DNA of 64,000 nt from an uncultured Gammaproteobacteria bacterium (GCA_964619625.1 CAZUFD010000003.1:30282-94281), one strand, 5' to 3'. Shown: positions 1,432-48,404, counted from the stretch's first letter. Made by a program: numbers and translations. The notes: generated by a model from the letters alone, not told the origin.

Positions 1432-3579
1432 ATGGCAAAGTCAGCCGTGCGTAATTTGTATAAACTTTTTAACCCAGGCTCTATTGCTATTTTGGGAGCT
1501 TCGCGCGATGAAAAAAAAATCGGCAATATAGTGCTTAGAAATATTGTTAATTCCGGTTTTAGAGGCAAGATTTTTCCGGTCAATCCAAATTCCGAAGATA
1601 TAAACGGATTAACATGTTATGGCAGTTACGCGAAATTGCCGGAGATTCCGGATTTGGCAATTTTGTCATTGCCTTCGGATTTAGCTTTAGAACTTTTAGA
1701 ACCGATTGCCAAAAAAGGCACAAAAAACATTATCATATTCAGCGCCGGTTTTAAGGAGATCGGTCCTGAAGGAGAAAAAAAAGAAGAGAGCTTGCGTGCG
1801 GCCGCACAGAAATTTGGCCTAAATATTCTGGGTCCGAACTGCCTTGGCTTTGCCAGCACTGTAAGCAGTCTAAATGCCACATTTAGCAGAGTCGGCGGAG
1901 CCAGAGGAAACCTAAGATTTATGTCTCAGTCCGGAGCCTTGGCTTCCGGAATTTTTGATTGGGCTAGACAAAATGCTGTTGGTTTTAGCGAGTTTATTAC
2001 ACTCGGCAATAAAGCAGTTTTAAATGAAAACGATATTTTGCAATATTGGCTCAGTAAACCAAAAACCAAAAAACAAGAAACGGGCTTGTCTAATTGCCAG
2101 CCTATAGGTTTATATTTGGAATCAATAGACGCCGGACAAAAATTTTTAGAATTAGCAGCCAAAACTTCTCTTGCAGATCCTATTTTTATTTTAAAACCCG
2201 GTAAATCAAAGCAAGCGCAACAAGCCATTCGTTCTCATACGGGATCTATGGCCGGAGATGATGCCGTGCAAGACGCAGCTTTTGCCGAAGCCGGAGTAAT
2301 ACGCTGTGAAGGAGTAGAAGACATGTTTGATTTAGCCAAAGCTTTTTCTTGGGAAAACGCGCCGCGCGGGCCAAGAGTGGCTATAGTATCCAATGCAGGC
2401 GGTCCGGCGGTAATTAGCACCGATGCTTTAGAAAAAGAAGGTTTGGAATTGGCGGTTTTAAGTAAAAAAACATTAGCTAAACTAACAAAAAATCTTCCGC
2501 GCGCGTCTAATGTTTTAAATCCGGTGGATGTTTTGGGCGACGCGCTTTCGGATCGTTATCATGAAGCCATAAACGACGTGTTGGCTGAATCTGGCGTAGA
2601 TGCGCTGGTAATCATACTCACTCCGCAGGTGATGACGGAAGTGGAAACAACGGCCGAATTGATAGGAAAATTATCCGCCAAATATGGCAAGCCTGTAGTT
2701 TGTTCGTTTATGGGAGCCGACCTTATTCATACGGCTGAAGAAATTTTAAATAAATATAAGATTCCGTCGTTTAGATTCCCGGAACGGGCTATAAAGGCTT
2801 TGGCAAAAATGTGGCAATGGCGATCGGCAGCTGAAAAACAAAAAGCGCGCGTGAAACAGAAAAAACAAAAGTTGGTTTCTAAACATAGCACAGAAAAAAT
2901 CAATGCCATAATTCAATCTTTGGAAAAAAATAACAAAGTACTCTCGGCAACTCAAGCCGACGAGGTATTACATACTTGTGGCATTAAAACACCAAAGTCC
3001 GCAACGATTAATAATGTAGAAGAAGCGCGTAATTTCGCGCAAAAAAATAAATGGCCGGTAGTGCTTAAAATTTCTTCGCCATTTTTGATGCATAAAACCG
3101 AAGCGGGAGCCGTAATTAAAAATATAAATAATAATGAACAATTAGAAAACGCATGGACAAAAATTACGGCCATAGTAAAAAAATTACCGAATAAATCAAA
3201 CTGCTTTATACAAATTCAACAGCAAATCGGCGCGGGCGTTGAAGTTATTGCCGGCATAAAACATGACAACAGTTTTGGCAATGTGCTTATGTTTGGCGCG
3301 GGTGGAATACTGGCCGAACTAATAGGGGATAGTAATTTAAAAATGCTGCCAATAGACGAAGCTGGCGCAAAACAATTAATATTAAAATCCAAAGTCAGCA
3401 AACTACTTACCGGATTTAGAAATCAAAAATCTTTTGCCTTAAACAAACTGGCAACTTTGCTTGTAAAACTTGGAAATCTGGCGCAAACAACAAATCAGTT
3501 TAGTGAAATTACGATCAATCCGATTATAGTTACTGAAACTGATGCCTGGGCCGTAGACCCAAGAATCATAGTCAGATAA
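1432..3579 (+). CDS. acetate--CoA ligase (ADP-forming), fused alpha/beta (CoA-binding + ATP-grasp domains)
   Basis: 715 aa; N-terminal CoA-binding/succinyl-CoA-synthetase-like domain (SIAILGASRDEKKIGN...FPVNP) plus C-terminal ATP-grasp; 2 nt after ddl stop. Confidence 0.8.
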   Translation: MAKSAVRNLYKLFNPGSIAILGASRDEKKIGNIVLRNIVNSGFRGKIFPVNPNSEDINGLTCYGSYAKLPEIPDLAILSLPSDLALELLEPIAKKGTKNIIIFSAGFKEIGPEGEKKEESLRAAAQKFGLNILGPNCLGFASTVSSLNATFSRVGGARGNLRFMSQSGALASGIFDWARQNAVGFSEFITLGNKAVLNENDILQYWLSKPKTKKQETGLSNCQPIGLYLESIDAGQKFLELAAKTSLADPIFILKPGKSKQAQQAIRSHTGSMAGDDAVQDAAFAEAGVIRCEGVEDMFDLAKAFSWENAPRGPRVAIVSNAGGPAVISTDALEKEGLELAVLSKKTLAKLTKNLPRASNVLNPVDVLGDALSDRYHEAINDVLAESGVDALVIILTPQVMTEVETTAELIGKLSAKYGKPVVCSFMGADLIHTAEEILNKYKIPSFRFPERAIKALAKMWQWRSAAEKQKARVKQKKQKLVSKHSTEKINAIIQSLEKNNKVLSATQADEVLHTCGIKTPKSATINNVEEARNFAQKNKWPVVLKISSPFLMHKTEAGAVIKNINNNEQLENAWTKITAIVKKLPNKSNCFIQIQQQIGAGVEVIAGIKHDNSFGNVLMFGAGGILAELIGDSNLKMLPIDEAGAKQLILKSKVSKLLTGFRNQKSFALNKLATLLVKLGNLAQTTNQFSEITINPIIVTETDAWAVDPRIIVR

Positions 3580-3588
3580 TATTAAGAT

Positions 3589-5298
3589 ATGCAACCATTT
3601 AGCGTAAAAATTGGCGGAGAAGCGGGGTTTGGCATCATGTCCTCTGGTTTGATTTTTTCTAAAGTTGCGACTCGTTCCGGCTACCATGTATTTAATTATA
3701 TGGAGTACCCTTCCATCATTAGAGGCGGGCATAATGTAATGCAGATAATGGTATCGGAAAATCCGATTGCGGCTTCATATGAACATACGGATTTTTTAGT
3801 TGCCTTAAATCAGCAAACCATAGACCTACATGTTTCAGAGCTTTCACTAAACGCCGGTTTGATGTATGACTCGGTAACGTGCGTGCTGCCAAAACTCCCT
3901 AAAGGAGTAACTGCTTTTGACATTCCGATTGATAAAATAGTCAGAGAAATTGGCGGGTCGTTTATTTTTAGAAATACTATAGCGATCGGCGCGGCCGTGG
4001 CGCTCGTTGGAGGCGATATAAAAATTTTGAAAGATTTGTTAGCTGAAGGGTTTGCCGGTAAATCAAAAGAACTCATAGAGAAAAATTTTCGCGTTGCCGA
4101 AGCCGGATATAACTACGCGCGCCAGCGGTATGCCAATAAAATTAAGCCAATATTTGCGATAAAAAAGAAAAAACAAAAACAAATGGTAATAGCCGGCAAC
4201 GAAGCGATCGCTCTGGGTTCAATTGCCGCAGGTATGCAATTTGCCGCTATTTACCCTATGACGCCGATTAGCAATATTTTACATACCTTGGCGCCACTAC
4301 AGGAAAAATATAATTTTATTTATAAGCAGCCCGAGGATGAAATCTCGGCCATTAATATGGCTATTGGCGCTTCGTTTGCGGGAGCTAGGGCCATGACCGC
4401 GTCTGCGGGCGGGGGATTTTGTTTGATGAGTGAGGGCTATGGCTTGGCGGCTATGACCGAAACTCCGCTGGTTATTATAGAAGGTATGCGAGGCGGTCCG
4501 GCTACGGGCTTGCCAACATGGACCGAACAGGGTGATTTGCGATTTGTTTTGCATGCGCATCAAGGCGAGTTCGCAAGAATTGTTTTGGCAGCCGGTGATG
4601 CGACCGAAGCATTTCACCTCACCATGCAGGCGTTTAATTTGGCAGATAAATATCAAACCCCGGTAATAGTTATTGTTGACAAACAAGTGTGTGAAAGTCA
4701 TTTTAGCGTTAGTCCGTTTGAGTATAATAAATATATAGCAGACAGAGGAAAATTTACGGCTAAAAAACAAGCAAACTATAAACGGTATGCTCTCAGCAAA
4801 GATGGTATATCATTACGCAGCATCCCGGGTGTAGGCAACCATGTTGTCGCCAATTCCGATGAACATAATGAGCTGGGATATTCTAATGAAGAGGCTAAAA
4901 ATAGATTAGATCAAATGAGTAAGCGTATGCAAAAATTGGCTACCTGTGCCAAAGAAGATTTGCCTAAGCCGGAACTAGTCGGGCCAAAAGATGCGGATGT
5001 AACCATAGTATCCTGGGGCAGCAATAAAGGCGCAATTTTAGAAGCCATGAATTATTTTGATAATGTAAATTTTTTACATCTGACTTGGATCAGTCCGTTT
5101 CCAACCGAGGCCGTAAAAAATATTTTGCATAAAGCAAATAGAATTCTAAATATAGAATGTAATTCTACGGCGCAGATGGCCGGACTTATTAAAGAAAAAA
5201 CCGGCATTGGCATAAAAGATAATTTATTAAAATACGATGGCCGGCCGTTTTTCCCGGAAGAAATCATCGCGAAAATTATATCGATTTTACGTCGGTAA
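3589..5298 (+). CDS. 2-oxoacid:ferredoxin oxidoreductase, fused gamma-alpha subunit
   Basis: 569 aa; N-terminal gamma-domain (GGEAGFGIMSSG) followed by alpha (pyrimidine-binding/transketolase-like) domain. Confidence 0.85.
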   Translation: MQPFSVKIGGEAGFGIMSSGLIFSKVATRSGYHVFNYMEYPSIIRGGHNVMQIMVSENPIAASYEHTDFLVALNQQTIDLHVSELSLNAGLMYDSVTCVLPKLPKGVTAFDIPIDKIVREIGGSFIFRNTIAIGAAVALVGGDIKILKDLLAEGFAGKSKELIEKNFRVAEAGYNYARQRYANKIKPIFAIKKKKQKQMVIAGNEAIALGSIAAGMQFAAIYPMTPISNILHTLAPLQEKYNFIYKQPEDEISAINMAIGASFAGARAMTASAGGGFCLMSEGYGLAAMTETPLVIIEGMRGGPATGLPTWTEQGDLRFVLHAHQGEFARIVLAAGDATEAFHLTMQAFNLADKYQTPVIVIVDKQVCESHFSVSPFEYNKYIADRGKFTAKKQANYKRYALSKDGISLRSIPGVGNHVVANSDEHNELGYSNEEAKNRLDQMSKRMQKLATCAKEDLPKPELVGPKDADVTIVSWGSNKGAILEAMNYFDNVNFLHLTWISPFPTEAVKNILHKANRILNIECNSTAQMAGLIKEKTGIGIKDNLLKYDGRPFFPEEIIAKIISILRR

Positions 5299-5360
5299 AA
5301 TCGTGTATCCTTGATTTCTCGCCAAAGAGAAATCAAGGGAAAAATACCTAAATTATTGCT

Positions 5361-6218
5361 ATGACTACTGTACAAAATTTAAAAACTCCTAATGCGTGCA
5401 ATTGGTGTCCGGGATGCGGCAATTTTGGCATTTGGACAGCCGTTAAGGAAGCCGCGGCTAAGGAACGCTGGAATAATACCAACAGCGTGATTGTGGCCGG
5501 CATCGGCTGCCATGGTCATATTAATAATTTCATTGAACTGAGCAGTTTTGAAGGGTTGCATGGCCGGGCTATACCGGTGGCTTCGGCTATAAAAATGGTG
5601 AACCACAGGCTGAATGTAATGGTTTTTACCGGCGACGGAGATTGTTTGGCCGAAGGGGGTAATCATTTCATGCATGCGGCTCGCCGTAATCAAAATTTAA
5701 CGGTTATTTTGCATGATAATGCCATTTATGGCCTTACCACCGGACAAACCTCGCCACGTTCTCCGCACGGCTTTAAATCAAAATCAACCCCTATGGGGAA
5801 TTTGGATGAACCGATTAACCCGCTTACGCTGGCCATATCTGCCGGAGCCACGTTTGTCGCCAGAGCATATTCAGGCGATATTCCTCGTCTCACCGATTTA
5901 ATTATTCAAGCAAATAACCATAACGGTTTTTCGGTATTGCAGATTTTACAGCCATGCGTAACATTTAATAAAATCTATTCACATACTTTTTTCCAGGAAA
6001 ATACGTATCATTTGCCCGCAAGTTATAATCCGCAAGATAAAACTGCGGCCTTTGCTAAAACCTTGGAGTGGGGAGAAAAACAAATCCCGGTCGGCGTAAT
6101 TTATAAAGAAGATAGGCCGTCGTACGAAGATCAAGTGCCGCAAATTAAAGCTGCGCCTCTTATTTCGGTAGCCGCGAAAAAAAGAAATATTAATGAAACA
6201 CTGGAAACATTTCTATGA
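5361..6218 (+). CDS. 2-oxoacid:ferredoxin oxidoreductase beta subunit (TPP-binding)
   Basis: CNWCPGCGNFGI motif and GDGD TPP-binding signature; TGA stop overlaps next ATG (ATGA). Confidence 0.85.
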   Translation: MTTVQNLKTPNACNWCPGCGNFGIWTAVKEAAAKERWNNTNSVIVAGIGCHGHINNFIELSSFEGLHGRAIPVASAIKMVNHRLNVMVFTGDGDCLAEGGNHFMHAARRNQNLTVILHDNAIYGLTTGQTSPRSPHGFKSKSTPMGNLDEPINPLTLAISAGATFVARAYSGDIPRLTDLIIQANNHNGFSVLQILQPCVTFNKIYSHTFFQENTYHLPASYNPQDKTAAFAKTLEWGEKQIPVGVIYKEDRPSYEDQVPQIKAAPLISVAAKKRNINETLETFL

Positions 6219-6682
6219 AGAAGATTCTGTTAATATACGCTACGCATTCCGGCAGTACCTTTGTAGCCGCGCAAATCATCAAGGAAATTTTGTCAACCAA
6301 TTTTGAGGTGGTAATGCAAAATGCCTTGGAGTCAAAACCAACAGATATAAAAAATTATGATACGGTTATTTTAGGTTCCCCAAGCTGGTTTAGCAGGGGA
6401 GAAGAAGGAATGCCATCCGAAACCATGCTGAAATTAACGGATGTTTGGGGTAAACAGAATTTATCCAATAAGCATTTCGCGGTATATGGCTGCGGTGATG
6501 ATAGTTATATGACTTTTTGTGGCGCGGTAAATCATCTGGAAAATTTTGTAAAAAACGTAAAAGGCAACTTTATGTTGCCATCCCTTCGTCTCAATGGTTT
6601 CTTTTTTGACGTAGATAAAAACGTAGAACAGGTAAAAAAATGGGCCGCTGATTTAAAAGTTAAAGCCGGCACGATCTGGTAA
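6215..6682 (+). CDS. flavodoxin
   Basis: MKKILLIYATHSGSTFVAAQ flavodoxin-like N-terminus; translationally coupled to OFOR beta. Confidence 0.8.
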   Translation: MKKILLIYATHSGSTFVAAQIIKEILSTNFEVVMQNALESKPTDIKNYDTVILGSPSWFSRGEEGMPSETMLKLTDVWGKQNLSNKHFAVYGCGDDSYMTFCGAVNHLENFVKNVKGNFMLPSLRLNGFFFDVDKNVEQVKKWAADLKVKAGTIW

Positions 6683-6685
6683 AGA

Positions 6686-7651
6686 TTACTTTTTACCGCT
6701 GTGAAATTTTTTGTGGATATCGCGCAAGCGCGGATTGGTGACGTGCGTGTAGATTTGAGTTGTAACAATATTTTTATGGCCCAGAAGTTCTTGCACGGAA
6801 CGCATATCTGCGCCTTGTTGCAGTAGATCCGTGGCAAAGCTGTGGCGCAATGTATGCGGCGTGGCATCTATGGGCAATCCGGCCATGGATCTGTATTTGC
6901 TTACCATCCGCTCTATGGAACGAGCGGTTAAACGGTTGTCATTTTCTTCATCGCCACCTTTTTTATAGTTTATAAATAGCGGTTGGTGCATGTCTTTTCT
7001 AGTTTTAAGATACTCTCCCAACCATTTTAAGGCTCGATCGGAGAAATAAATTGTACGGGTTGAACCGCCTTTTCCAGAAATGGTTAGTTCTTCATCGGAA
7101 TATTTTCCCTTTTTTAAGTTTTCCACGTTAAAGCTTCTTACATTGAGTGAAGTTAATTCGGAGACACGCATGCCGGTAGAGAACAGGATTTCTAAAATTG
7201 CCCGATCACGCAAGCCGTCCGGCTTGGAAAGGTCGGGCATGTTCATTAATTTTTCTACTTGTTCAAATTTAAGAAATTTAATTGCCTTATCTTTATCCGT
7301 AAGTTTTGGCAGCTTTATTTTTTCCGATGGCAGGGAAATGATATCTTTTTCAGCAAAATAGGCGAGGAGATTTCGTAAAGCGATCAGATAATAATTTTGC
7401 GTTGTTTTTTTATTAAAATTGCCCCGCTTATCCTTTTTTCGGGATAAAGATACGCGATAATTCCAGATATGTTCCGGGGTAAGTTCATGGGGTTTTAATG
7501 AGCCTAAATTTGATTCTTGGAGCCATTTGGTAAAGGTTTTGAGAAAGTTGTGGTAATTGCGGGTAGAAATAGGGGAGAGGCCCTTTTCAATTTCGCAGTA
7601 TTCCAAAAAAGTGGGGATGTGGAAGGTGATGGGTTGATTGGATTTGTGCAT
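6686..7651 (-). CDS. tyrosine site-specific recombinase (XerC/XerD-family integrase)
   Basis: C-terminal catalytic motifs HTLRHSFATDLLQQGADMRSVQELLGHKNIVTTQIYTHV; N-terminal SAM-like core-binding domain. Confidence 0.85.
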   Translation of the reverse strand: MHKSNQPITFHIPTFLEYCEIEKGLSPISTRNYHNFLKTFTKWLQESNLGSLKPHELTPEHIWNYRVSLSRKKDKRGNFNKKTTQNYYLIALRNLLAYFAEKDIISLPSEKIKLPKLTDKDKAIKFLKFEQVEKLMNMPDLSKPDGLRDRAILEILFSTGMRVSELTSLNVRSFNVENLKKGKYSDEELTISGKGGSTRTIYFSDRALKWLGEYLKTRKDMHQPLFINYKKGGDEENDNRLTARSIERMVSKYRSMAGLPIDATPHTLRHSFATDLLQQGADMRSVQELLGHKNIVTTQIYTHVTNPRLRDIHKKFHSGKK

Positions 7652-7862: not shown

Positions 7863-7872
7863 GGAGCTATAT

Positions 7873-7900
7873 TTGACATAATTATTTTATATGTTAATCT
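7873..7900 (+). promoter_or_regulatory. sigma70-like promoter (TTGACA -35, 16-nt spacer, TAATCT -10)
   Basis: Perfect -35 hexamer 7873-7878 upstream of GC-rich ORF X1. Confidence 0.45.
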
Positions 7901-7939
7901 TTGTATTTAAGACAAAAAAACACCACCAGGGAGGCATCC

Positions 7940-8317
7940 ATGAATTGGCGCGAAGTTGCAAGCCGTGATGATGTGGTGGGCGGGGAGATTGAGACCCAAG
8001 AAGGGGAGTTCATCTTCCGCGGCCCGATCACATCTGTAGAAGTTCGTGATGACGGCCTGGTCTATTTCCAGGTTGCCTGGGCAGCCCAGAAGCCCATCAG
8101 CATGGAAGGCGGATGGGTGAAGCATGAGGCCACAAGCTTCGTGGTGAGCGCACGTGTTTCGATAGAAGATATCGGTGAAGGCAAACTTCACTTCCGAACT
8201 TCGTTTGCGGAGTCCGCAACCATCTTCCTAAAGGGGAGTGGTAACAAACTGAGTCCACGCAATGTTCGTGGTCTGCGGGTTTGTAGAAGTCACAGAAGAC
8301 ATGCCAAGGCTTCTTGA
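7940..8317 (+). CDS. GC-rich small protein, family X copy 1 (hypothetical, 125 aa)
   Basis: GGGAGG SD 5 nt before ATG 7940; about 60% GC versus AT-rich surroundings; weak similarity to 9744-10097 (MNWREV/MKWKKV N-termini; W.K...S...ED motif). Confidence 0.6.
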   Translation: MNWREVASRDDVVGGEIETQEGEFIFRGPITSVEVRDDGLVYFQVAWAAQKPISMEGGWVKHEATSFVVSARVSIEDIGEGKLHFRTSFAESATIFLKGSGNKLSPRNVRGLRVCRSHRRHAKAS

Positions 8318-8391
8318 GAGGGGGAAATCAGTAAGGCCGTCCAAATTGCTTTGATTATAAAAGTTATAGTTAAAGCAATGACGGTCTTAAT

Positions 8392-8419
8392 AAAATACAC
8401 CTTTAATGAGGTGTATTTT
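8392..8419. terminator. bidirectional intrinsic terminator hairpin (AAAATACACCT...AGGTGTATTTT)
   Basis: 11-bp perfect stem between convergent X1 and Y1 genes, flanked by T/A runs. Confidence 0.5.
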
Positions 8420-8564
8420 ATTATTTAAAATTGCAAAACCACCGCCCCGAACTCATCTTTGCAGATAAAATCGGAAACGGTGGTTGAAAGAATCCTTGAT
8501 CGGCATCACTTGTTCCATAGATCAAATGTCCGAATAACTAAGACTCTAGTTGGTTACTCTGGTG

Positions 8565-8873
8565 CTACTCCTCGGCCTGGATAGCGTCCAGCGAACCGAA
8601 AAGTCTGGCGATGAAGAGATCTTCGGCAGCTCCACTGAAGTGCTGAGAAAGTTGGATCGTGATGGTGCAATCGGCGCGTCCCCGCCAGTCTCCGTGGTTG
8701 GCCACGGAGGTGAGCAGTTCGTGGTCCTCAATCGAGGCCGGCGCCAGGTAGTTCTCGGTCATCCGAAGCAGTTCTCTGACAGCGCCGGTTGCGCCGTATT
8801 TGAACTGCAGTCTCAACCTACGACTGCCGTTGCGCGCCTTCTTCAGTTCGACAGACATTTGCTCTCTCATCAT
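8565..8873 (-). CDS. GC-rich small protein, family Y copy 1 (hypothetical, 102 aa)
   Basis: GGAGG SD 5 nt before ATGATG start at 8873; TTGACC-17-TACCAT promoter on minus strand about 8928-8956; paralog of 9424-9732 and 47997-48308. Confidence 0.65.
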   Translation of the reverse strand: MMREQMSVELKKARNGSRRLRLQFKYGATGAVRELLRMTENYLAPASIEDHELLTSVANHGDWRGRADCTITIQLSQHFSGAAEDLFIARLFGSLDAIQAEE

Positions 8874-9027
8874 ACACACCTCCGAGGTGGGATGGAATTG
8901 TTTGTGCCGTGAACAAAGTAGCATGGTACCCTACTTTTAGCCCCAGGTCAATTAAATATATCAAATCTTTAGTTTATTTTTAGGAAAAATTTATTATAGT
9001 TAGTGTATAGTAAATCTTAACTATAAT

Positions 9028-9306
9028 ATGAAAATAAAGTTTTATTTAGTATTTTTCTGTCTGTTAATTTTGTTAGGCGCTGGCTGTAAAAAAGAAGAAT
9101 GGCAAGGATTTTATTATCCAAACGGCTGTCTTTCGTGCATGGAAGATTATATCTATAGCCCAACGCTTTCTTCAGTGGAAGAATGCCATAACTGGGCACA
9201 GGAAATAAAGAAAGAGCGGGGGGATAACCCAACCGATCAATATGAATGTGGTTTAAATTGTAGGGCCAAAGGTATTTTGCATGTTTGCAAGGAAACGGTA
9301 GATTAA
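9028..9306 (+). CDS. small Cys-rich lipoprotein (92 aa)
   Basis: Signal peptide with lipobox LLGAGC; AT-rich codon usage (host-like); TATAAT at about 9021. Confidence 0.55.
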   Translation: MKIKFYLVFFCLLILLGAGCKKEEWQGFYYPNGCLSCMEDYIYSPTLSSVEECHNWAQEIKKERGDNPTDQYECGLNCRAKGILHVCKETVD

Positions 9307-9373
9307 GTAAAAATTTTACTATCCGCCTGCTCTAGCAAGTCGTTTTTTAGTACTCAAATAGCGGAATAGATAA

Positions 9374-9401
9374 TTGACAATAATAATTAATGTGTTAGTC
9401 T
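9374..9401 (+). promoter_or_regulatory. sigma70-like promoter (TTGACA -35, 16-nt spacer, TAGTCT -10)
   Basis: Perfect -35 at 9374-9379; same architecture as promoter at 7873. Confidence 0.4.
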
Positions 9402-9423
9402 TATGTACCAGGAGGAAGATTCC

Positions 9424-9732
9424 ATGAAAGAGAAAGCTGCCGAAGTCCTTGGACAGGCTCTGGTGGGTACGCGGACGCTCAAGCTGACGTTCAAGCGAAC
9501 AGCTCCAGCAATTGTCTTCAGGCATCTGGATTCAATGTGGGGCAGAGGACTGTTGTTCCTCTCCAGCGGTAATCGAGTGCGACTCAAGATGCTTCTGGCC
9601 AAGGGTGCCGATTGGGGAGGGGATGAGAAGCGAGTTCTGGAGCTTACCCTTACCGTGGAATTCACGGAACAAAGCCGGGGTTGGTTTATTCGCCAGGTTT
9701 CCGATGGCCTGGACGATATCCAGGCTGTGTGA
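9424..9732 (+). CDS. GC-rich small protein, family Y copy 2 (hypothetical, 102 aa)
   Basis: AGGAGG SD 9410-9415; conserved blocks GTRTLKLTFKRTAPAIV, ADWGGDE, LTLTVEF, LDDIQA shared with Y1 and Y3. Confidence 0.7.
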   Translation: MKEKAAEVLGQALVGTRTLKLTFKRTAPAIVFRHLDSMWGRGLLFLSSGNRVRLKMLLAKGADWGGDEKRVLELTLTVEFTEQSRGWFIRQVSDGLDDIQAV

Positions 9733-9743
9733 GAGGAGTTCTT

Positions 9744-10097
9744 ATGAAATGGAAAAAGGTTGATCGGGTAAATAAAGGGATTACCATAACCGGAAATCAT
9801 GGTGTCCCGCCAACAAGATGGTGGAACCACTGGTGGCTTGCACTCTTCGGCTGGAAGACAATTGTCACGTTCCGTCTTCCTGACGAGGTAGTAGCAAGCG
9901 GGTACCATGTGGGCTTCACGGCCAAAGACGGCAAGTCATGGTGCAAGCGCGCAGTCGCGCACGATAAGTTCTTTAGCATGAAAATCGGGTACGAGGATTG
10001 CAAGTTCTGGGTCAAAACAGCCCGCAATCCCGAACAGCCCGATACGGGTGGCGCAGTGATTTTGCCCGAGCTCATCAGCAGAGGGCCTCTTCACTAA
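9744..10097 (+). CDS. GC-rich small protein, family X copy 2 (hypothetical, 117 aa, Trp-rich N-terminus)
   Basis: GAGGAG SD; ATG 11 nt after Y2 stop (operon); WWNHWWLALFGW segment. Confidence 0.65.
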   Translation: MKWKKVDRVNKGITITGNHGVPPTRWWNHWWLALFGWKTIVTFRLPDEVVASGYHVGFTAKDGKSWCKRAVAHDKFFSMKIGYEDCKFWVKTARNPEQPDTGGAVILPELISRGPLH

Positions 10098-10169
10098 GAT
10101 GCGGCCATCTTTTCCAAGACGTACCCGCCGCAAGGCGTTTTGGAAATAAAAAACTTGCGGTTTGAACAA

Positions 10170-10202
10170 AAATAACCTTCTCATGAAGGTTATTTTTGTT
10201 TT
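10170..10202 (+). terminator. intrinsic terminator (AAATAACCTTC-TCAT-GAAGGTTATTT + TTGTTTT)
   Basis: 11-bp stem plus T-run downstream of X2. Confidence 0.55.
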
Positions 10203-33448: not shown

Positions 33449-33796
33449 CTATAATCGCTCTTCCGGCTTCTTTTCTTTCTTGCCGGCATCGTTTAATCTC
33501 TTGTACTGCGCGCCGTAATTTTTTGCTTTTTTGTGAATGATTTTGGCGGAAATTAGGGCTGCAAGGACAAATGCCAAAATGGTAAAAAGAGGTGCGGTGT
33601 TGTATTTTTTATCAATATACTGGCCAATCAGCACTAGGATTACAACCGGTACGGCTATGGAGGCGCCAAAATCACCTATAATTCGCAGAGCCAATATATA
33701 GTAATCTCGACTCGCTGGTTTCGGTAAATTTTCTTCGGGCATATAAAATGCACTTAAGAACGCGACTATTTTACATATATTTTTTTCTAAAGTCAA
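33449..33796 (-). CDS. AtpZ/AtpI-like small membrane protein at head of atp operon
   Basis: Two TM helices, basic C-terminus; operon position. Confidence 0.5.
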   Translation of the reverse strand: MTLEKNICKIVAFLSAFYMPEENLPKPASRDYYILALRIIGDFGASIAVPVVILVLIGQYIDKKYNTAPLFTILAFVLAALISAKIIHKKAKNYGAQYKRLNDAGKKEKKPEERL

Positions 33797-33930
33797 GCAT
33801 TTTTACAGGTGGATTGTTGTTGATAAAACTGCAGCTACAGAACCCAGCGGCCACACTCTCTAGATTTATGGCTGTTTTTGTTTATTTTGGCTAATTTTAA
33901 ACTAAAAATAGATAAAATTTTGATAAAGTA

Positions 33931-33959
33931 TTGACAAAACACGAACTTATTGTTACTAT
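33931..33959 (+). promoter_or_regulatory. sigma70 promoter TTGACA-17-TACTAT
   Basis: Perfect -35, 17-nt spacer, 5/6 -10; about 80-nt leader with RBS in hairpin loop (AACGGC GAAAGGA GCCGTT). Confidence 0.55.
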
Positions 33960-34041
33960 TGCTCGTTATGTAGAAGCGGCACGCAGGGGGTGTGCAACTT
34001 CTCATAATAGACCCTAAACGGCGAAAGGAGCCGTTTTCCCG

Positions 34042-34392
34042 ATGACCGACTACCAGAACCCTGATCCCGAACTTTTTGGTCTGGAGATCGCAGTCCATTT
34101 GGGCTGGCTCGCCGGTACCGAAGCCCCTCCACTAGAAGACGAGGGGGCAGAGATCACGATCAGCGAGTTTTCCGACGCTGATCTGTTCAACTTGGAGGTC
34201 GAACACGCAGTCGACACTGCCGTTGTCGTGCCAGAGCCCGCTGGGCTGAAGGCGGCAACTGCGGAACCGACCAGCGTGGATGATGGTTGGGAGATGGAAA
34301 ACACGGGTGACAGCCAGGAGAATACCCAGGTTGATCGCCCGCGTCACATGATCATTACGGCAGAAGGTCCCCGTCTGGTCCACCACGAGTAG
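34042..34392 (+). CDS. GC-rich highly acidic protein (116 aa, hypothetical)
   Basis: AAAGGAG SD; Asp/Glu/Pro-rich; about 60% GC. Confidence 0.6.
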   Translation: MTDYQNPDPELFGLEIAVHLGWLAGTEAPPLEDEGAEITISEFSDADLFNLEVEHAVDTAVVVPEPAGLKAATAEPTSVDDGWEMENTGDSQENTQVDRPRHMIITAEGPRLVHHE

Positions 34393-34417
34393 TTGGGTGT
34401 GCCGGCGCGAAGCATCT

Positions 34418-34481
34418 GTTCGCCGCCGCACTACCGCTTTCAAGATAAAAAAATTTGTCTTGTAAAGCGGTGGCGGCGAAC
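34418..34481. repeat. 64-nt imperfect inverted repeat (GTTCGCCGCC...ACCGCTTT / AAAGCGGT...GGCGGCGAAC) around an A-rich loop
   Basis: 10 + 8 bp stems with 5-nt bulge; directly after stop of 34042 gene; no T-run. Confidence 0.5.
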
Positions 34482-34508
34482 TTCAAAAAAACAGATATAA
34501 CAAAAAAT

Positions 34509-34530
34509 CCGCACGTGAGCGGGTTTTTTG
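34509..34530 (+). terminator. intrinsic terminator CCGCACGTGAGCGG + GTTTTTTG
   Basis: 4-bp GC stem, 6-nt loop, T6. Confidence 0.6.
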
Positions 34531-34583
34531 TTATATTGACCATTTACTTAAAATATGGTACGAATTATTTAGGAGGGATCAAC

Positions 34584-34700
34584 ATGAATCTTGCCGAGGA
34601 ATTGATTGGATCTGCCCTGGAAATCTTCCTGAACTGGATGGCGATCATGTACCGTATCCGGGAACTCTTCCGGGTTGACCTCTTCCCCTTGTCCTCCTAG
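34584..34700 (+). CDS. candidate 38-aa peptide
   Basis: AGGAGGG SD 6 nt before ATG; MNLAEELIGSALEIFLNWMAIMYRIRELFRVDLFPLSS; TTGACC at 34536. Confidence 0.4.
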   Translation: MNLAEELIGSALEIFLNWMAIMYRIRELFRVDLFPLSS

Positions 34701-34792
34701 TTAGTACCTTGTATCGGGCTTCACGCCCAGTACGTCGTCCTAGAGAGGGCAGCAACCAGCGGTGTCACACACTGTTGTGACGCCGCAACACA

Positions 34793-34825
34793 AAAACAGC
34801 TTTCAACGTAAGGCTGTTTTTGTTT
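34793..34825 (+). terminator. intrinsic terminator (AAACAGC...GCTGTTT + TTGTTTT)
   Basis: 7-bp stem plus T-run. Confidence 0.6.
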
Positions 34826-34882
34826 TCAACAATTGACCCATTTTATATAAGTATGCTAGTTTACATACAAGGAGGTAGTGGT

Positions 34883-35143
34883 ATGAAGAAGGATGCAAAT
34901 TTCTTTGAGAACTTGGTGGATTGGATCAAGGAGTCGCTGCGTACGTTGCAGCTAGACGAGGTGTTGGAAGATCTTGCTTACTGGGTGGGAAAGTTCGTTA
35001 TTGAGGTGAGCAAAGAGCTTACTCCTGAAGGTTTGCAGAAGTTCTTCAGCGGTTTGAGCGGCGGGTATATCAATACGATGGACCTAGACATCGATCTGGA
35101 TGGAGTGCAACCCGATGAACTTCTCTGCAAGAAAAGCAGGTAG
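34883..35143 (+). CDS. GC-moderate small protein (86 aa, hypothetical)
   Basis: AAGGAGG SD; TATAAG -10 at 34845-34850. Confidence 0.55.
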   Translation: MKKDANFFENLVDWIKESLRTLQLDEVLEDLAYWVGKFVIEVSKELTPEGLQKFFSGLSGGYINTMDLDIDLDGVQPDELLCKKSR

Positions 35144-35164
35144 CGCCTCTACTGCGCAAGGTCT

Positions 35165-35205
35165 TCGCCTCGCCCGAAAATTCGGAGCGAGGCAATGTAT
35201 TTTTA
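35165..35205 (+). terminator. intrinsic terminator hairpin (GCCTCGCCCGAA..TTCGGAGCGAGGC) + T-rich tail
   Basis: Long GC stem after stop of 34883 gene. Confidence 0.5.
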
Positions 35206-35251
35206 TAGGAAAAATGGATTACGTTTAATTTTTAAATATTGCTAGCACCCC

Positions 35252-35280
35252 TTGACAAAAGGGGTGTTTTGGTGTATAAT
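35252..35280 (+). promoter_or_regulatory. perfect consensus sigma70 promoter TTGACA-17-TATAAT
   Basis: Exact consensus hexamers with 17-nt spacer; -35 embedded in palindrome CACCCCTTGACAAAAGGGGTG. Confidence 0.7.
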
Positions 35281-35409
35281 GTCGGGTTGCTCTTTTAATA
35301 GACAGTCTTATTTGCCCCGGGGCAAGAATGCGTCAAATTAGCGCTTTCTCGCCCCTCGGCAACCAAGATTTCGCCGAGACAACCATTTTCCGTGAGAGGA
35401 TCGAAACAA

Positions 35410-35820
35410 ATGAAGAACTTCCGCACCCAGTTCACCTCCATCGCCAGCAACCTGATCATCCTGATCATCGCGCTCGCCTTCGTCCTCACGGGCGGGACGA
35501 CCACGGTCAACTCGGCCTACGCCGACGGCTCCGCGATCACCGTCCGCAAGAACGGCAAGAGTTTCCCGCTCACGCAGAAGCACCGCAACGCGATCAGCGA
35601 GATCGAGCACATCATGCGCCGGTCGGGCGACAACCAGAAGCAGCCGACGAAGTTCTTGTACTCCTGCAACCAGGGGAACGAGAAGATCCGGCAGATCGTC
35701 GCCACCTTCCCCGCGGATGAGCAGTTCATCATGTCGGACGAGTGGGACGGCGAGTGCTTCTTCTACATCCCGCCGACCCGGAAGGTCAACAAGACGCCGG
35801 TGATGGTCGCCAAGAAGTAG
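35410..35820 (+). CDS. secreted small protein with signal peptide (136 aa), extreme GC3 codon usage
   Basis: GAGAGGA SD; signal peptide ...LIIALAFVLTGGTTTVNSAYA; about 68% GC with GC3-saturated codons unlike host. Confidence 0.65.
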   Translation: MKNFRTQFTSIASNLIILIIALAFVLTGGTTTVNSAYADGSAITVRKNGKSFPLTQKHRNAISEIEHIMRRSGDNQKQPTKFLYSCNQGNEKIRQIVATFPADEQFIMSDEWDGECFFYIPPTRKVNKTPVMVAKK

Positions 35821-35873
35821 CAACACCCTGGTCGTGTTCGCGCCCCAAGCGCGGCCACGGCCTACGGCCCAAC

Positions 35874-35910
35874 GAACCCCGCACGCAAGTGTCGGGGTTC
35901 AGTATTTTTA
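35874..35910 (+). terminator. intrinsic terminator GAACCCCG...CGGGGTTC + T-run
   Basis: 8-bp GC stem followed by AGTATTTTTA. Confidence 0.65.
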
Positions 35911-36762
35911 AAGAGAAATATTAAATAACTTTTTAGCGTTTTCGGTCGTCGCAGCCTCGGCTTCGGCAAAAGATATTTGTTTTACTTCGGCAATTTTTTT
36001 AATTGTTTCTCGCACCATCGGCGGTTCGCATCTTTGGCCCCTATACGGAATCGGCGCCAAGTATGGCGCATCGGTTTCCACGACAATTTTTTCTAAAGGA
36101 CAATTTTTTACCACTTCAAGCAAATCAAATTGAAGTTGCGGAGAATTTTTCTTTGGCGGAAATGTTATAACACCGGTAAAACCAATATGCAGCCCCAATT
36201 CCAAATACTGCTGGGCAAAATGCCAGTTGCTGGTATAACAATGAACCGTGCCGCGAATTATTTGCTGCCCGTACTGGGCCATAAGCTGCTTTAACAGTTC
36301 TATCATCTCGGCATGCGCTTCGCGTACATGAAGAACCAAAGCCACGTTTAATTCTTGCGCTAATTTATATTGCAAAGCAAACATCTGTTTTTGTTTTTCC
36401 AACACCTCTTCCCTGGTTTTGTTTTCGGGCAATCTGTACAAATCCAAACCGCACTCCCCTACGGCAATCACTTTTTTACTTTGCCCCAAATTTTTATAAT
36501 ACTCATAATCAAACTCTTCTTCGCGCGACAAAAATTTACTTTCCTCTTCGTCAATATGAGTGGAAAACAAATGTATGGGATGAAGTCCGATGCTCGCATA
36601 CGTAAACGGAAACTTTTCAGCCATTTCCACTCCGGCCCGACTGGTATCTTTTTGCGTGCCAACCAAATTTAAAATCATATTCTCCTGGCCGCATTTTTTT
36701 ACGACTGCTTCGGCGTCATTTCTAAAACCATTAAACTGCACATGGCAATGGGTATCAAACAT
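35908..36762 (-). CDS. tatD: TatD-family metal-dependent DNase/hydrolase
   Basis: MFDTHCH N-terminal motif and TIM-barrel His/Asp/Glu residues. Confidence 0.8.
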   Translation of the reverse strand: MFDTHCHVQFNGFRNDAEAVVKKCGQENMILNLVGTQKDTSRAGVEMAEKFPFTYASIGLHPIHLFSTHIDEEESKFLSREEEFDYEYYKNLGQSKKVIAVGECGLDLYRLPENKTREEVLEKQKQMFALQYKLAQELNVALVLHVREAHAEMIELLKQLMAQYGQQIIRGTVHCYTSNWHFAQQYLELGLHIGFTGVITFPPKKNSPQLQFDLLEVVKNCPLEKIVVETDAPYLAPIPYRGQRCEPPMVRETIKKIAEVKQISFAEAEAATTENAKKLFNISL

Positions 36763-43468: not shown

Positions 43469-43589
43469 ACCACACTATGGGGATTTAAGCCTTATTCTAC
43501 AGTCTTTTCTGAAACTGTAAACCCCTCTATAAATTGACTCTTTATTCTACTAATGATAGCGTACTAATACACCCTAGAAGGAGTAAAGG

Positions 43590-43925
43590 ATGACCAGAAA
43601 CCCATCTGTGGGTGTCTTTAGAAGAATGTGGTGGTGCATTCGGTGCCGGAGAGCGTTGCCTAACGGCGGCCCATGCTCCCGCTGCAGAGGGATGCAGTGC
43701 ATTGGGTGCAAGGGGGCGCCTGACGGTCAATGCTCTCGCTGTAGAGGAAACTTCTGCATTTCTTGCTTTGAAGCGCATGCGCAAGTGAACCATGCGCCAA
43801 ACATGGTGATGACAGGGGTCAGTTGTGTGGAATGCGGAAATGAACCGGATGGCCAGTGTGCCCACTGCCCGGCAATCCTGTGCGAAGGCGAGGAATGCCG
43901 AAAAACCCACGAAGGCAGGCATTAG
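43590..43925 (+). CDS. GC-rich Cys-rich protein with three tandem CxxC-x(8-10)-CxxC zinc-ribbon units (111 aa)
   Basis: GAAGGAG SD 6 nt before ATG; repeats CIRCRRALPNGGPCSRCRG / CIGCKGAPDGQCSRCRG / CVECGNEPDGQCAHC; TTGACT at 43534. Confidence 0.6.
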   Translation: MTRNPSVGVFRRMWWCIRCRRALPNGGPCSRCRGMQCIGCKGAPDGQCSRCRGNFCISCFEAHAQVNHAPNMVMTGVSCVECGNEPDGQCAHCPAILCEGEECRKTHEGRH

Positions 43926-43974
43926 TCGTAACAGTGAAGACGGCTATGGAAGTATTTGCCCGATCGGGCAACCA

Positions 43975-44010
43975 GGACATCTGCAAGCCCAGCTCTGTCC
44001 TTGTTTTTTT
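43975..44010 (+). terminator. intrinsic terminator (GGACA...TGTCC + T9), preceded by hairpin TTGCCCGATCGGGCAA at 43956-43971
   Basis: Stem-loops followed by TTGTTTTTTT. Confidence 0.6.
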
Positions 44011-47923: not shown

Positions 47924-47948
47924 TTTAAACAGGCCGGCAGTATTTTTA

Positions 47949-47977
47949 TTGACAGCAAAAAATCAATAAGGGATAAT
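47949..47977 (+). promoter_or_regulatory. sigma70 promoter TTGACA-17-GATAAT
   Basis: Perfect -35, 17-nt spacer, 5/6 -10, 20 nt upstream of SD AAGGGGG. Confidence 0.6.
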
Positions 47978-47996
47978 ATCCGCCAAGGGGGAAACC

Positions 47997-48308
47997 ATGC
48001 AGAACAAGCTTTCGTTGGCCTTGGAGCAGGCGCTCCAGGGATCATGTCAGGTTCAAATCACTTTCAAACGGGATGCGGCTAACAGTGTCCGCTCTCTGCT
48101 GAGAATGATCAAGACCGGGCACATCTTGATGCCGGACGATGAGGAGAAGGCTCTCAAGAAGACCGCTCAGTCCGGTGGGTGGGGTGAAGATCGTCATCGT
48201 ACGACAAATGTCACGTTCACGAGCATTTTCGTCAAGGCCGATATGAAGGATACGTTTGCCAGAATGATGCGTCTAGCCATCGAACAGATCGAGGTCGTGC
48301 CATCCTAA
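47997..48308 (+). CDS. GC-rich small protein, family Y copy 3 (orphan, 103 aa)
   Basis: Blocks GSCQVQITFKRDAANSVRSLLRM, SGGWGEDRHRTTNVTFTSIF, LAIEQIEVV align with Y1/Y2. Confidence 0.7.
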   Translation: MQNKLSLALEQALQGSCQVQITFKRDAANSVRSLLRMIKTGHILMPDDEEKALKKTAQSGGWGEDRHRTTNVTFTSIFVKADMKDTFARMMRLAIEQIEVVPS

Positions 48309-48330
48309 GCAGCAAGCCTGCCAAAACAAA

Positions 48331-48368
48331 GAGCGCCAGGATAATCATCCCGGCGCTCAAATTATTTT
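48331..48368 (+). terminator. intrinsic terminator (GAGCGCCAGG...CCCGGCGCTC + A/T tail)
   Basis: 9-bp GC-rich stem after Y3 stop. Confidence 0.55.
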
Positions 48369-48404
48369 AGAATAATTATTTCAATTTTTCATTTTTTAAA
48401 TTAA

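Follow-up and report, generated by a model that had tools for sequence, protein, structure and literature searches.

An islet of GC-rich, Shine-Dalgarno-led small genes between tatD and the ATP synthase operon of a putative Candidate Phyla Radiation bacterium

The DNA analyzed here is a 64-kb stretch of a contig deposited under the name of an uncultured Gammaproteobacteria bacterium (GCA_964619625.1, CAZUFD010000003.1:30282-94281); we call this stretch the window, and all coordinates are counted from its first letter. The window has a GC content of 0.407 (40.7%), we read its host as a Candidate Phyla Radiation (CPR) bacterium, and its TatD protein clusters at no less than 90% identity with the TatD of a Candidatus Magasanikbacteria metagenome-assembled genome. 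Around the region of interest the host genes metG, cvpA, tatD (35908-36762), atpI (33449-33796), atpB, atpE and atpF are all on the minus strand. Between tatD and atpI, four small open reading frames (ORFs) lie on the plus strand within a block of about 2.1 kb (33805..35907, +), bounded by the atp-operon promoter and atpI on one side and by the 3' end of tatD on the other, which we refer to as the islet. An earlier note on this DNA, made from the sequence alone, had recognized the block as four tandem units, each with start signals, a small ORF and a terminator, and nearly all of the elements that it listed are present where it had placed them. The note had also placed the block downstream of the ATP synthase operon. 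Since tatD and atpI are on the minus strand and the small ORFs on the plus strand, the islet is instead upstream of and divergent from the atp operon, of which atpI is the first gene, and convergent with tatD.

We compared the islet with the corresponding loci of L001 (GCA_016182085.1), L002 (a separate Logan assembly of run SRR12113430), L004 (the RIFOXY Magasanikbacteria lineage), L024 (SRR22388068) and the more distant Patescibacteria L005, L006 and L007. Unit 1 opens with a predicted promoter (33931..33959, +), TTGACA-17-TACTAT, which matches the consensus at 10 of 12 positions, includes a TG and is identical in L001. Its 76-nucleotide (nt) leader (33967..34041, +) is predicted to form hairpins at 33967-34006 and 34016-34036 (-28.3 kcal/mol, z-score -3.3), with the Shine-Dalgarno (SD) sequence AAGGAG (34025-34030, +) in the loop of the second. 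ORF1 (34042..34392, +) encodes 116 amino acids (aa), 26 acidic and 4 basic, for a net charge of about -22 and an isoelectric point (pI) of 4.07. It is followed by a 64-nt inverted repeat, which forms a 26-bp hairpin in the 3' untranslated region (UTR) with a conserved 5-nt bulge, (G/T)CACT (34418..34481, +), and by terminator B (34499..34532, unstranded), whose stem is wholly replaced in L001 with the hairpin kept. Because terminator B is built of an A-tract, a hairpin and a T-tract, it is potentially bidirectional.

The start region of unit 2 (34536..34577, +) comprises TTGACC (34536-34541), TATGGT (34554-34559) and the SD AGGAGGG (34571-34577). ORF2 (34584..34700, +) encodes a 38-aa amphipathic peptide. 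Of the four ORFs it is the least secure as a coding sequence, and the Logan assembly has it annotated as a gene. The 3' end of the unit (34759..34826, unstranded) consists of a GC-rich hairpin (34759-34786) and terminator A (34792-34826), which aligns to L004 8101-8056 at 79%. Unit 3 begins in the same manner (34833..34875, +), with TTGACC (34833-34838), TATGCT (34852-34857) and the SD AAGGAGG (34869-34875), followed by ORF3 (34883..35143, +), an acidic protein of 86 aa (pI 4.4) that is predicted to be helical, and by a sequence-predicted terminator (35166..35204, +) that is kept in L001. Unit 4 has the predicted promoter TTGACA-17-TATAAT (35252..35280, +), an exact match to the consensus, a 130-nt leader containing a hairpin of about 20 bp (35306..35366, +) whose arms are rich in purines (5') and pyrimidines (3'), and the SD GAGAGGA (35394..35400, +), found in the SD scan. 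ORF4 (35410..35820, +) encodes 136 aa, with an N-terminal hydrophobic helix, a predicted Sec-type signal peptide at residues 1-38 (AYA|D) and a basic mature part of 98 aa with two cysteines. Its 3' end (35830..35909, unstranded) combines a GC-rich hairpin (35830-35863) with a terminator (35874-35909), the stem again replaced and the hairpin kept in L001; this terminator lies directly against the stop codon of tatD, so ORF4 and tatD, which converge here, may share it. At the opposite edge of the islet, an orphan terminator half (33867..33883, +), which shares 94% identity with terminator A over the latter's 3' half and is partly deleted in L001, is probably the vestige of a lost unit.

The start signals of these genes set them apart from those of the host. 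When positions -4 to -17 are scanned for matches to AAGGAGGTGA of 4 nt or longer, only 4 of 57 host genes have one, against all 10 GC-rich mini-genes of the window (Fisher P = 4e-9); with at least 5 nt required, the counts are 2/57 and 8/10 (P = 3e-7). Host genes have A/T-rich sequence upstream in place of an SD. The earlier note had described them as mostly lacking strong SDs, and this is confirmed. The host is thus essentially SD-less, and the mini-genes of the window use a different start-signal regime. The textbook promoters that the note also described fared unevenly: units 1 and 4 do have promoter sequences of the sigma-70 type, that of unit 4 being the sole 12/12 match between positions 30 and 40 kb, but promoter-like hits as a whole show no excess (28, where 20.5 +/- 4.6 would be expected), so that only their quality and position stand out, and the TATAAG proposed as the -10 of unit 3 has no -35 at a usable spacing. 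What is conserved before units 2 and 3 is the arrangement TTGACC-N12/13-TATGNT, which recurs before the ORF3 homologues of L004 and L024. The motif AATTGACC-N12/13-TATGNTA is present in four lineages (window 34536-34559 and 34833-34857; L004 7205-7180; L024 907-932); its spacing is too short for standard sigma-70, and it could represent a different promoter class or an operator.

The islet is also distinct in composition. Its local GC content is 0.45-0.61 against 0.407 for the window, and its ORFs have a GC content of 0.47-0.61, with GC content at third codon positions (GC3) of 0.65, 0.74, 0.63 and 0.985 for ORF1 to ORF4. Among 56 host genes the mean GC3 is 0.377 (standard deviation 0.056) and the maximum 0.46, so the compositional island described earlier is real. 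The intergenic and regulatory pieces of the islet have a host-like GC content of 0.39-0.46. At first and second codon positions, ORF4 has GC contents (GC1 and GC2) of 0.45 and 0.39, which are typical of a low-GC proteome.

The three more distant relatives show what the locus looks like without the islet. A TatD scan of the genome collection with tblastn mapping found that in L005, L006 and L007 the string metG-cvpA-tatD-atpI-atpB(-atpE-atpF) is collinear on one strand and the tatD-atpI gap is only about 70-115 bp. Because these relatives are collinear and have a near-empty spacer, the islet is a true insertion into a conserved gene string. L001 and L002 carry the same islet with the same junctions (SRR12113430 may be the same sample as L001), in the RIFOXY lineage this site holds a homologous and larger islet, seen in 13 contigs drawn from NCBI, JGI, ENA and Logan, and L024 adds a fourth lineage with a homologous islet at tatD|atpI. 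The distribution is therefore patchy, with the islet present in four Magasanikbacteria lineages and absent from the three more distant relatives. By blastn, the flanks of the islet align to those of L004 at 33741-33804 and 35893-35998, with homology breaking at 33804 and 35893, while the interior is rearranged. The flanking genes of the window and L004 are synonymously saturated (synonymous divergence, dS, 1.4 for tatD and 2.7 for cvpA).

The RIFOXY tatD-atpI gap is about 7.4 kb long and contains six GC-rich small genes together with four larger genes (276, 315, 159 and 279 aa) that have host-like GC content and no Pfam or PHROG match (L025 1029-4346 / L004 10624-12601). A duplicated 5' fragment of atpI lies at the inner boundary of the RIFOXY islet (L004 10624-10764). 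In L007, where tatD|atpI itself is empty, about 3 kb is inserted between cvpA and tatD (1795-4776), which suggests a neighboring hotspot.

Several observations bear on whether the ORFs are translated and how they evolve. All five ORF indels between the window and L001, both of those in ORF1 included, are multiples of three (five of five by chance, about 0.4%), and the SD and ATG of the islet ORFs are conserved. The L001 orthologues are 85% (ORF1), 84% (ORF2) and 78% (ORF4) identical. Of the islet proteins, ORF3 alone is conserved across the four lineages (30% identity to its L004 counterpart, E = 7e-12), keeping its protein similarity to L004 where DNA similarity is lost, while ORF1 and ORF2 are absent from L004 and L024, in which ORF3 and the ORF4 family persist. 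BLAST fails to pair ORF4 with U2, the gene at the same position in L004. Their homology appears instead from the alignment of promoter, leader and 5' coding DNA (58% over 375 nt) and from shared protein features: the two, about 22% identical, have in common an AxA-D site, two cysteines and the motifs C..N..I..IV..P and D..D..C..Y..P. We also compared ORF1 with the acidic U4 protein of L004 and found no detectable similarity.

Between the window and L001, the ratios of nonsynonymous to synonymous divergence (dN/dS) of ORF1 to ORF4 are 0.83, 0.58, 0.48 and 0.68, compared with 0.05-0.12 in the flanks, and substitutions are spread evenly over the three codon positions in the islet (41/25/38) but not in the flanks (62/27/241; P = 6e-11). 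The changes in ORF4 are clustered, with a fully rewritten signal peptide, three in-frame indels and only 9 of 264 nt differing in the mature part. Homology and structure searches, which the earlier note had recommended, returned orthologues within the clade and no family, fold or defense match. Among 5.8 billion proteins, ORF4 found only its L001 orthologue, ORF1 only itself and its L001 orthologue, and an ORF3 profile only four proteins, so that these three have no relatives outside the clade in that collection, in which ORF2 was not searched. ORF1 and ORF4 had no match in phage records by tblastn, and ORF4 had none in viral contigs or, scanned with an alignment of its family, in JGI metagenome contigs. 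None of the four proteins matched Pfam, NCBIfam, PHROGs, PADLOC or PDB sequences, searches of the L004 and L025 islet genes against Pfam, PHROGs, NCBIfam and PADLOC gave no credible hit, and no islet protein, including those of the larger RIFOXY genes, had a PHROG match below E = 0.003. AlphaFold2 models are of low confidence (pLDDT 54 for ORF4, and 57 for ORF3, with three or four helices), and Foldseek/PDB fold searches with both were empty.

The RNA elements of the islet are conserved as structures and are combined differently in different lineages. Six promoter-leader modules, those of U4 in the window and L001, U1, U2 and U5 in L004 and U5 in L024, align over the -35, the -10 and the long hairpin, and they precede three unrelated ORF families. 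In the leader hairpin (35306-35366), 12 of 20 pairs show compensatory changes, and 85.8% of cells are paired compared with about 50% in slid controls, a value reached by none of 500 shuffles. Copies of this hairpin, whose purine-rich 5' arm is SD-like, fold with z-scores of -3.3 to -5.3. A covariance model built from it (R1) scores 70 bits at its window copy and found no copies outside the islets in 167 kb of scanned sequence. In the 26-bp 3' hairpin, seven pairs are changed on both sides between window/L001 and L004/L024 and none is broken, and terminator stems differ throughout in sequence between the window and L001 with hairpins still formed. We conclude that both covarying hairpins, in the leader and in the 3' UTR, have been conserved in structure. 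A pattern scan of metagenomes for the long hairpin found the RIFOXY lineage only, plus a chance match in a high-GC contig (L034), and Rfam 15 gave no hit at gathering thresholds in the window, the best sub-threshold matches being terminator look-alikes (28.7 bits against a threshold of 47). The order of modules is ORF1, long hairpin with terminator B, ORF2, hairpin with terminator A, ORF3 in the window, and U4, hairpin with terminator A, U5, long hairpin with terminator B, ORF3 homologue in L004; ORFs and regulatory modules have been reshuffled between lineages. The bodies of the ORFs fold only marginally better than shuffles (z-scores -1.9 and -2.0), and we dropped them as candidate structured RNAs.

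The high GC3 of the ORF4 family has persisted across these lineages, at 0.985, 0.959 and 0.98 in three of them, the last value being that of the remote L004 homologue. As the flanks are synonymously saturated over the same divergence, the bias is actively maintained and is not a decaying relic. Third-position differences between the window and L001 are exchanges of G and C in 12 of 18 cases in ORF4 and in 15 of 241 in the flanks (P = 1.5e-9). Other islet families hold intermediate values (0.50-0.69 for ORF3, 0.69-0.79 for U5). Selection on synonymous composition, biased gene conversion or repeated import of GC-rich alleles could each account for the persistence.

The tatD|atpI block is not singular. 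The same kind of mini-gene recurs at no fewer than four other sites of the window, within 7.86-10.2, 43.56-43.99 and 47.94-48.37 kb, and the block belongs to a wider class of GC-rich, SD-led mini-genes that lie dispersed in this genome. The protein encoded at 47997-48308 is paralogous (30-34% identity) to those of ORFs 8568-8873 (-) and 9424-9729 (+), and the three define a family without a name, whose members are some 100 aa long; at E <= 1e-3, a search of 1.84 billion representatives placed 156 representative clusters in it (P0010-P0159). All ten clusters that we looked up are metagenome-derived and named only "hypothetical protein", and neither the window paralogues nor P0026 have a Pfam match. 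A member of this family is held by an unrelated CPR contig, L031 (GC about 0.49), which has a six-gene island without Pfam matches (2261-6377), with GC up to 0.75 and GC3 of 0.75-0.98. This island has an SD before six of six genes and none before the flanking genes, starts with TTGACA-17-TATAGT, a leader of about 180 nt and a tRNA-Leu(TAA) (2472-2557), and ends in a terminator (6357-6377).

Among known systems, the islet seems closest to the phage moron. Morons of HK97/HK022-type phages are defined as extra DNA that deviates in GC content and brings along a promoter and a terminator (Cumby, Davidson & Maxwell 2012, PMC3594210). The islet units are likewise clear additions relative to related genomes, with a GC content unlike that of their neighbors; each has a predicted terminator, a hairpin with a T-run after the ORF that is conserved in structure, with a canonical promoter sequence in units 1 and 4 only and the non-canonical TTGACC-N12/13-TATGNT in units 2 and 3; and they could, from their signals, be expressed independently of the surrounding operons. 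They differ in their chromosomal position between tatD and the atp operon, where no lineage has phage genes, in stacking four to six units in tandem, in sharing paralogous promoter-leader and hairpin-terminator modules, and in keeping their compositional deviation over a long divergence without fading. The moron thus appears to be the nearest analogue, but membership fails on phage context.

Genomic islands are reportedly frequent among Patescibacteria (PMC12455944), and the islet resembles ORFan genomic islets, including those of that phylum, in being a lineage-restricted, deviant gain-and-loss hotspot of hypothetical genes. It differs from them in that its deviation is confined to the ORFs (mainly GC3), with host-like regulatory DNA, in that its genes have translation-initiation signals unlike those of the host, and in the hallmarks of mobility: there is no tRNA or tmRNA in the window, no integrase in the islet and no flanking direct repeat beyond a 12-nt low-complexity match. 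Like the islet, integron cassette arrays string together small, mostly orphan ORFs that vary in composition, have imperfect hairpins between them in which a bulge is conserved, and differ in content between relatives. However, integron cassettes are promoterless whereas the islet units have their own start signals and terminator, the islet has neither IntI nor attI, and its hairpin, GTTCGCC...GGCGAAC, has the boxes inverted relative to attC (RYYYAAC ... GTTRRRY), with R''/R' unmatched. The other inter-ORF hairpins of the islet are unrelated in sequence to the long one. No recombinase is encoded between 31 and 39 kb, the nearest being a tyrosine recombinase at 6686-7651. Integron membership fails on attC, IntI and the promoterless cassettes. 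The ompA leader is the stabilizing 5' stem-loop of a long-lived bacterial mRNA, and mRNAs of this type resemble the islet units in having a long 5'-UTR hairpin, a loop-displayed SD and double 3' hairpins around a short ORF. They differ in that the islet elements have no sequence relationship to them and no Rfam family, and a stabilizing role in the islet would be by analogy.

We consider it probable, if only modestly so, that the islet is an old, clade-restricted accessory element of the Magasanikbacteria tatD|atpI spacer, built of autonomous monocistronic expression cassettes. A cassette would consist of its own start region (of the sigma-70 type in units 1 and 4), a strong SD, often placed in a hairpin loop or behind a long leader hairpin, a small GC3-enriched ORF, and a 3' end in which a GC-rich hairpin precedes an intrinsic terminator that is often bidirectional. 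Acting together, the hairpins at the 5' end, the SDs exposed in loops, the GC-rich bodies and the paired hairpins at the 3' end may yield stable mRNAs that are strongly and independently expressed, and in an AT-rich, SD-less host such structured mRNAs may require an SD for initiation. Of the predicted products, one is a Sec-exported basic protein with two cysteines, two are cytoplasmic and very acidic, and the fourth is an amphipathic peptide of 38 aa. They may have a role outside housekeeping, on the cell surface or in conflicts with partner cells, competitors or phage, and this would explain their fast evolution; since all four proteins are orphans, function can only be proposed. The original source was probably horizontal, a moron-like accretion that would predate the split of these lineages, and present evolution would proceed by gain and loss of cassettes and shuffling of modules.

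Some points weigh against this account of the islet. The promoters, terminators and translation of the units are predictions from sequence, units 2 and 3 lack canonical sigma-70 spacing, and the window holds no 16S gene from which SD use by the host ribosome could be read. Pooled islet dN/dS is 0.67, not significantly different from 1 (binomial P = 0.076); being indistinguishable from neutrality, it implies that purifying selection is weak over the short distance between the window and L001. A role at the surface or in conflict is suggested by signal peptide, charge and evolutionary rate, with no family, structure or defense match beside them. An appearance of selection on GC3 could also result from biased gene conversion or from alleles imported again and again from a GC-rich pool.

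Other origins of the islet would account for part of the same evidence. If it were a recent import from a high-GC, SD-using donor, its composition would be an un-ameliorated relic: ORF4 has the codon usage of a high-GC organism, SD-led mini-genes sit within an SD-less host, more distant relatives have an empty site, and the L031 islands, with GC of 0.70-0.75, resemble genuine 70%-GC DNA (GC1 0.68, GC2 0.47, GC3 0.95-0.98). Yet the same site is occupied in four lineages with GC3 still at 0.98 although flank dS is 1.4-2.7, GC1 and GC2 of ORF4 are those of a low-GC proteome, regulatory DNA is host-like in GC and homologous between lineages, and no donor homologue appeared among the 5.8 billion proteins, viral contigs, JGI metagenome contigs and phage records (ORF2 was not searched), which together make a recent import quite unlikely. 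The earlier note's "foreign" block accordingly stands as DNA added to a conserved string and deviant in GC3, SD use and its organization into monocistronic units with their own terminators, but not as a recent arrival, given homologous same-site islets in two further lineages with saturated flanks. A prophage or mobile-element remnant, made of true morons of a CPR phage or of an integrative element using tatD|atpI as its attachment site, strikes us as unlikely. It would fit the moron-like architecture (PMC3594210), the tyrosine recombinase adjoining the mini-gene islet at 7.86-10.2 kb, the position of the L031 island after tRNA-Leu and the half-terminator at 33867-33883, which indicates past gain and loss; but in none of the lineages does the tatD-atpI interval contain an integrase, phage structural or replication gene, and there is no PHROG match below the E-value given above, none in viral contigs or phage records, and no flanking direct repeat other than the 12-nt low-complexity match. 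The abrupt compositional change at both edges might also point to an assembly chimera or contaminant insert, a possibility raised in the earlier note. We regard it as negligible, given that the same junctions recur in two further assemblies of a 90%-identical relative (GCA_016182085.1 and the Logan assembly of SRR12113430), that homologous same-site islets occur in 13 contigs from four data sources, and that both flanks are conserved up to the islet edges.

Two further alternatives concern what the units encode, and we judge both very unlikely. The ORFs might be untranslated and the units be genes for structured or regulatory RNAs, their GC content reflecting RNA structure in an AT-rich genome; near-neutral dN/dS, substitutions spread evenly over codon positions, synonymous divergence below that of most flanks (proportion of synonymous differences 0.13 against 0.07-0.45) and the covarying hairpins in the UTRs would all agree with this. 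They have to be set against five of five indels in frame, an ORF3 protein conserved where its DNA similarity is lost, a signal-peptide logic kept despite rewritten sequence, a conserved SD correctly spaced from each ATG, and ORF bodies with only marginal folding and no Rfam family. Alternatively, ORF4 or the ORF2 peptide might be a secreted toxin or bacteriocin, with ORF3 and ORF1 as cytoplasmic immunity or neutralizer proteins. ORF4 is small, basic and predicted to be Sec-exported with two cysteines, the proteins diversify rapidly, and ORF3, at about 86 aa, acidic and predicted helical, is about the size of known four-helix immunity proteins. There is, however, no sequence or fold match to bacteriocin, toxin or immunity families; ORF2 is anionic, which known leaderless bacteriocins are not; and the partners are not co-inherited, ORF1 and ORF2 being missing from L004 and L024, where ORF3 and the ORF4 family persist.

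Going beyond an accessory islet of autonomous cassettes, CPR bacteria with SD-less initiation might keep a second, segregated class of small accessory genes, SD-led, hairpin-wrapped and saturated with GC-ending codons, whose composition is held by selection and does not merely linger from a transfer; we find this doubtful. Such selection may act, for example, on mRNA stability or on conditional translation by a ribosome sub-population or state. In a bolder version, the signals of the mini-genes would be adjusted so that the genes are expressed inside a high-GC, SD-using partner organism or in coordination with it.

If the accessory-islet account is true, episymbiotic ultra-small bacteria, for all their supposed streamlining, maintain hotspots whose small secreted or acidic proteins are quickly renewed and are expressed independently, and these would be natural candidates for partner-interaction or defense factors. 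The juxtaposition of an SD-less host with SD-led, GC3-saturated genes offers a handle on how initiation and codon composition are partitioned within one cell. A GC3 of about 0.98 held in a 40%-GC genome across synonymous saturation is a strong natural case for non-neutral synonymous forces, and the hairpins that covary are two candidates for new cis-regulatory RNA motifs.

Two candidate features within the islet were rejected. An antisense ORF of 162 aa over ORF4 (35338-35826; GC1 0.90, GC3 0.46, without SD) is a shadow ORF, open as an automatic by-product because ORF4 avoids TTA, CTA and TCA codons. A 23-nt complementarity between ORF3 (34980-35002) and the start of ORF4 (35409-35431) is not conserved on the ORF4 side in L001.

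The remaining mini-gene loci of the window vary in makeup. The islet at 7865-10190 contains GC-rich, SD-led mini-genes, each with a promoter-like site and a hairpin terminator, at 7940-8317 (+), 8568-8873 (-), 9424-9732 (+) and 9744-10097 (+). It adjoins the tyrosine recombinase (6686-7651, Pfam Phage_integrase), and amid it lies an AT-rich, host-like ORF of the Cys-rich lipoprotein type (9028-9306). The unit at 47940-48370 has TTGACA-17-GATAAT, the SD AAGGGGGA, the ORF of 103 aa at 47997-48308 (GC3 0.66) and a terminator. The unit at 43560-43990 has the SD AAGGAG, a GC-rich ORF (43590-43925, +) for a 111-aa, Cys-rich, zinc-ribbon-like protein and a terminator; a minus-strand ORF at 43542-43922 is probably a shadow of it. 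Outside the window, a low-GC CPR contig (L037, 3237-7056) has nine small genes without Pfam matches together with one RRM_1-domain gene. The genes of this island have a GC3 of 0.31-0.50 compared with 0.20-0.27 in the flanks and lack an SD, and GC elevation and SD use are therefore separable.

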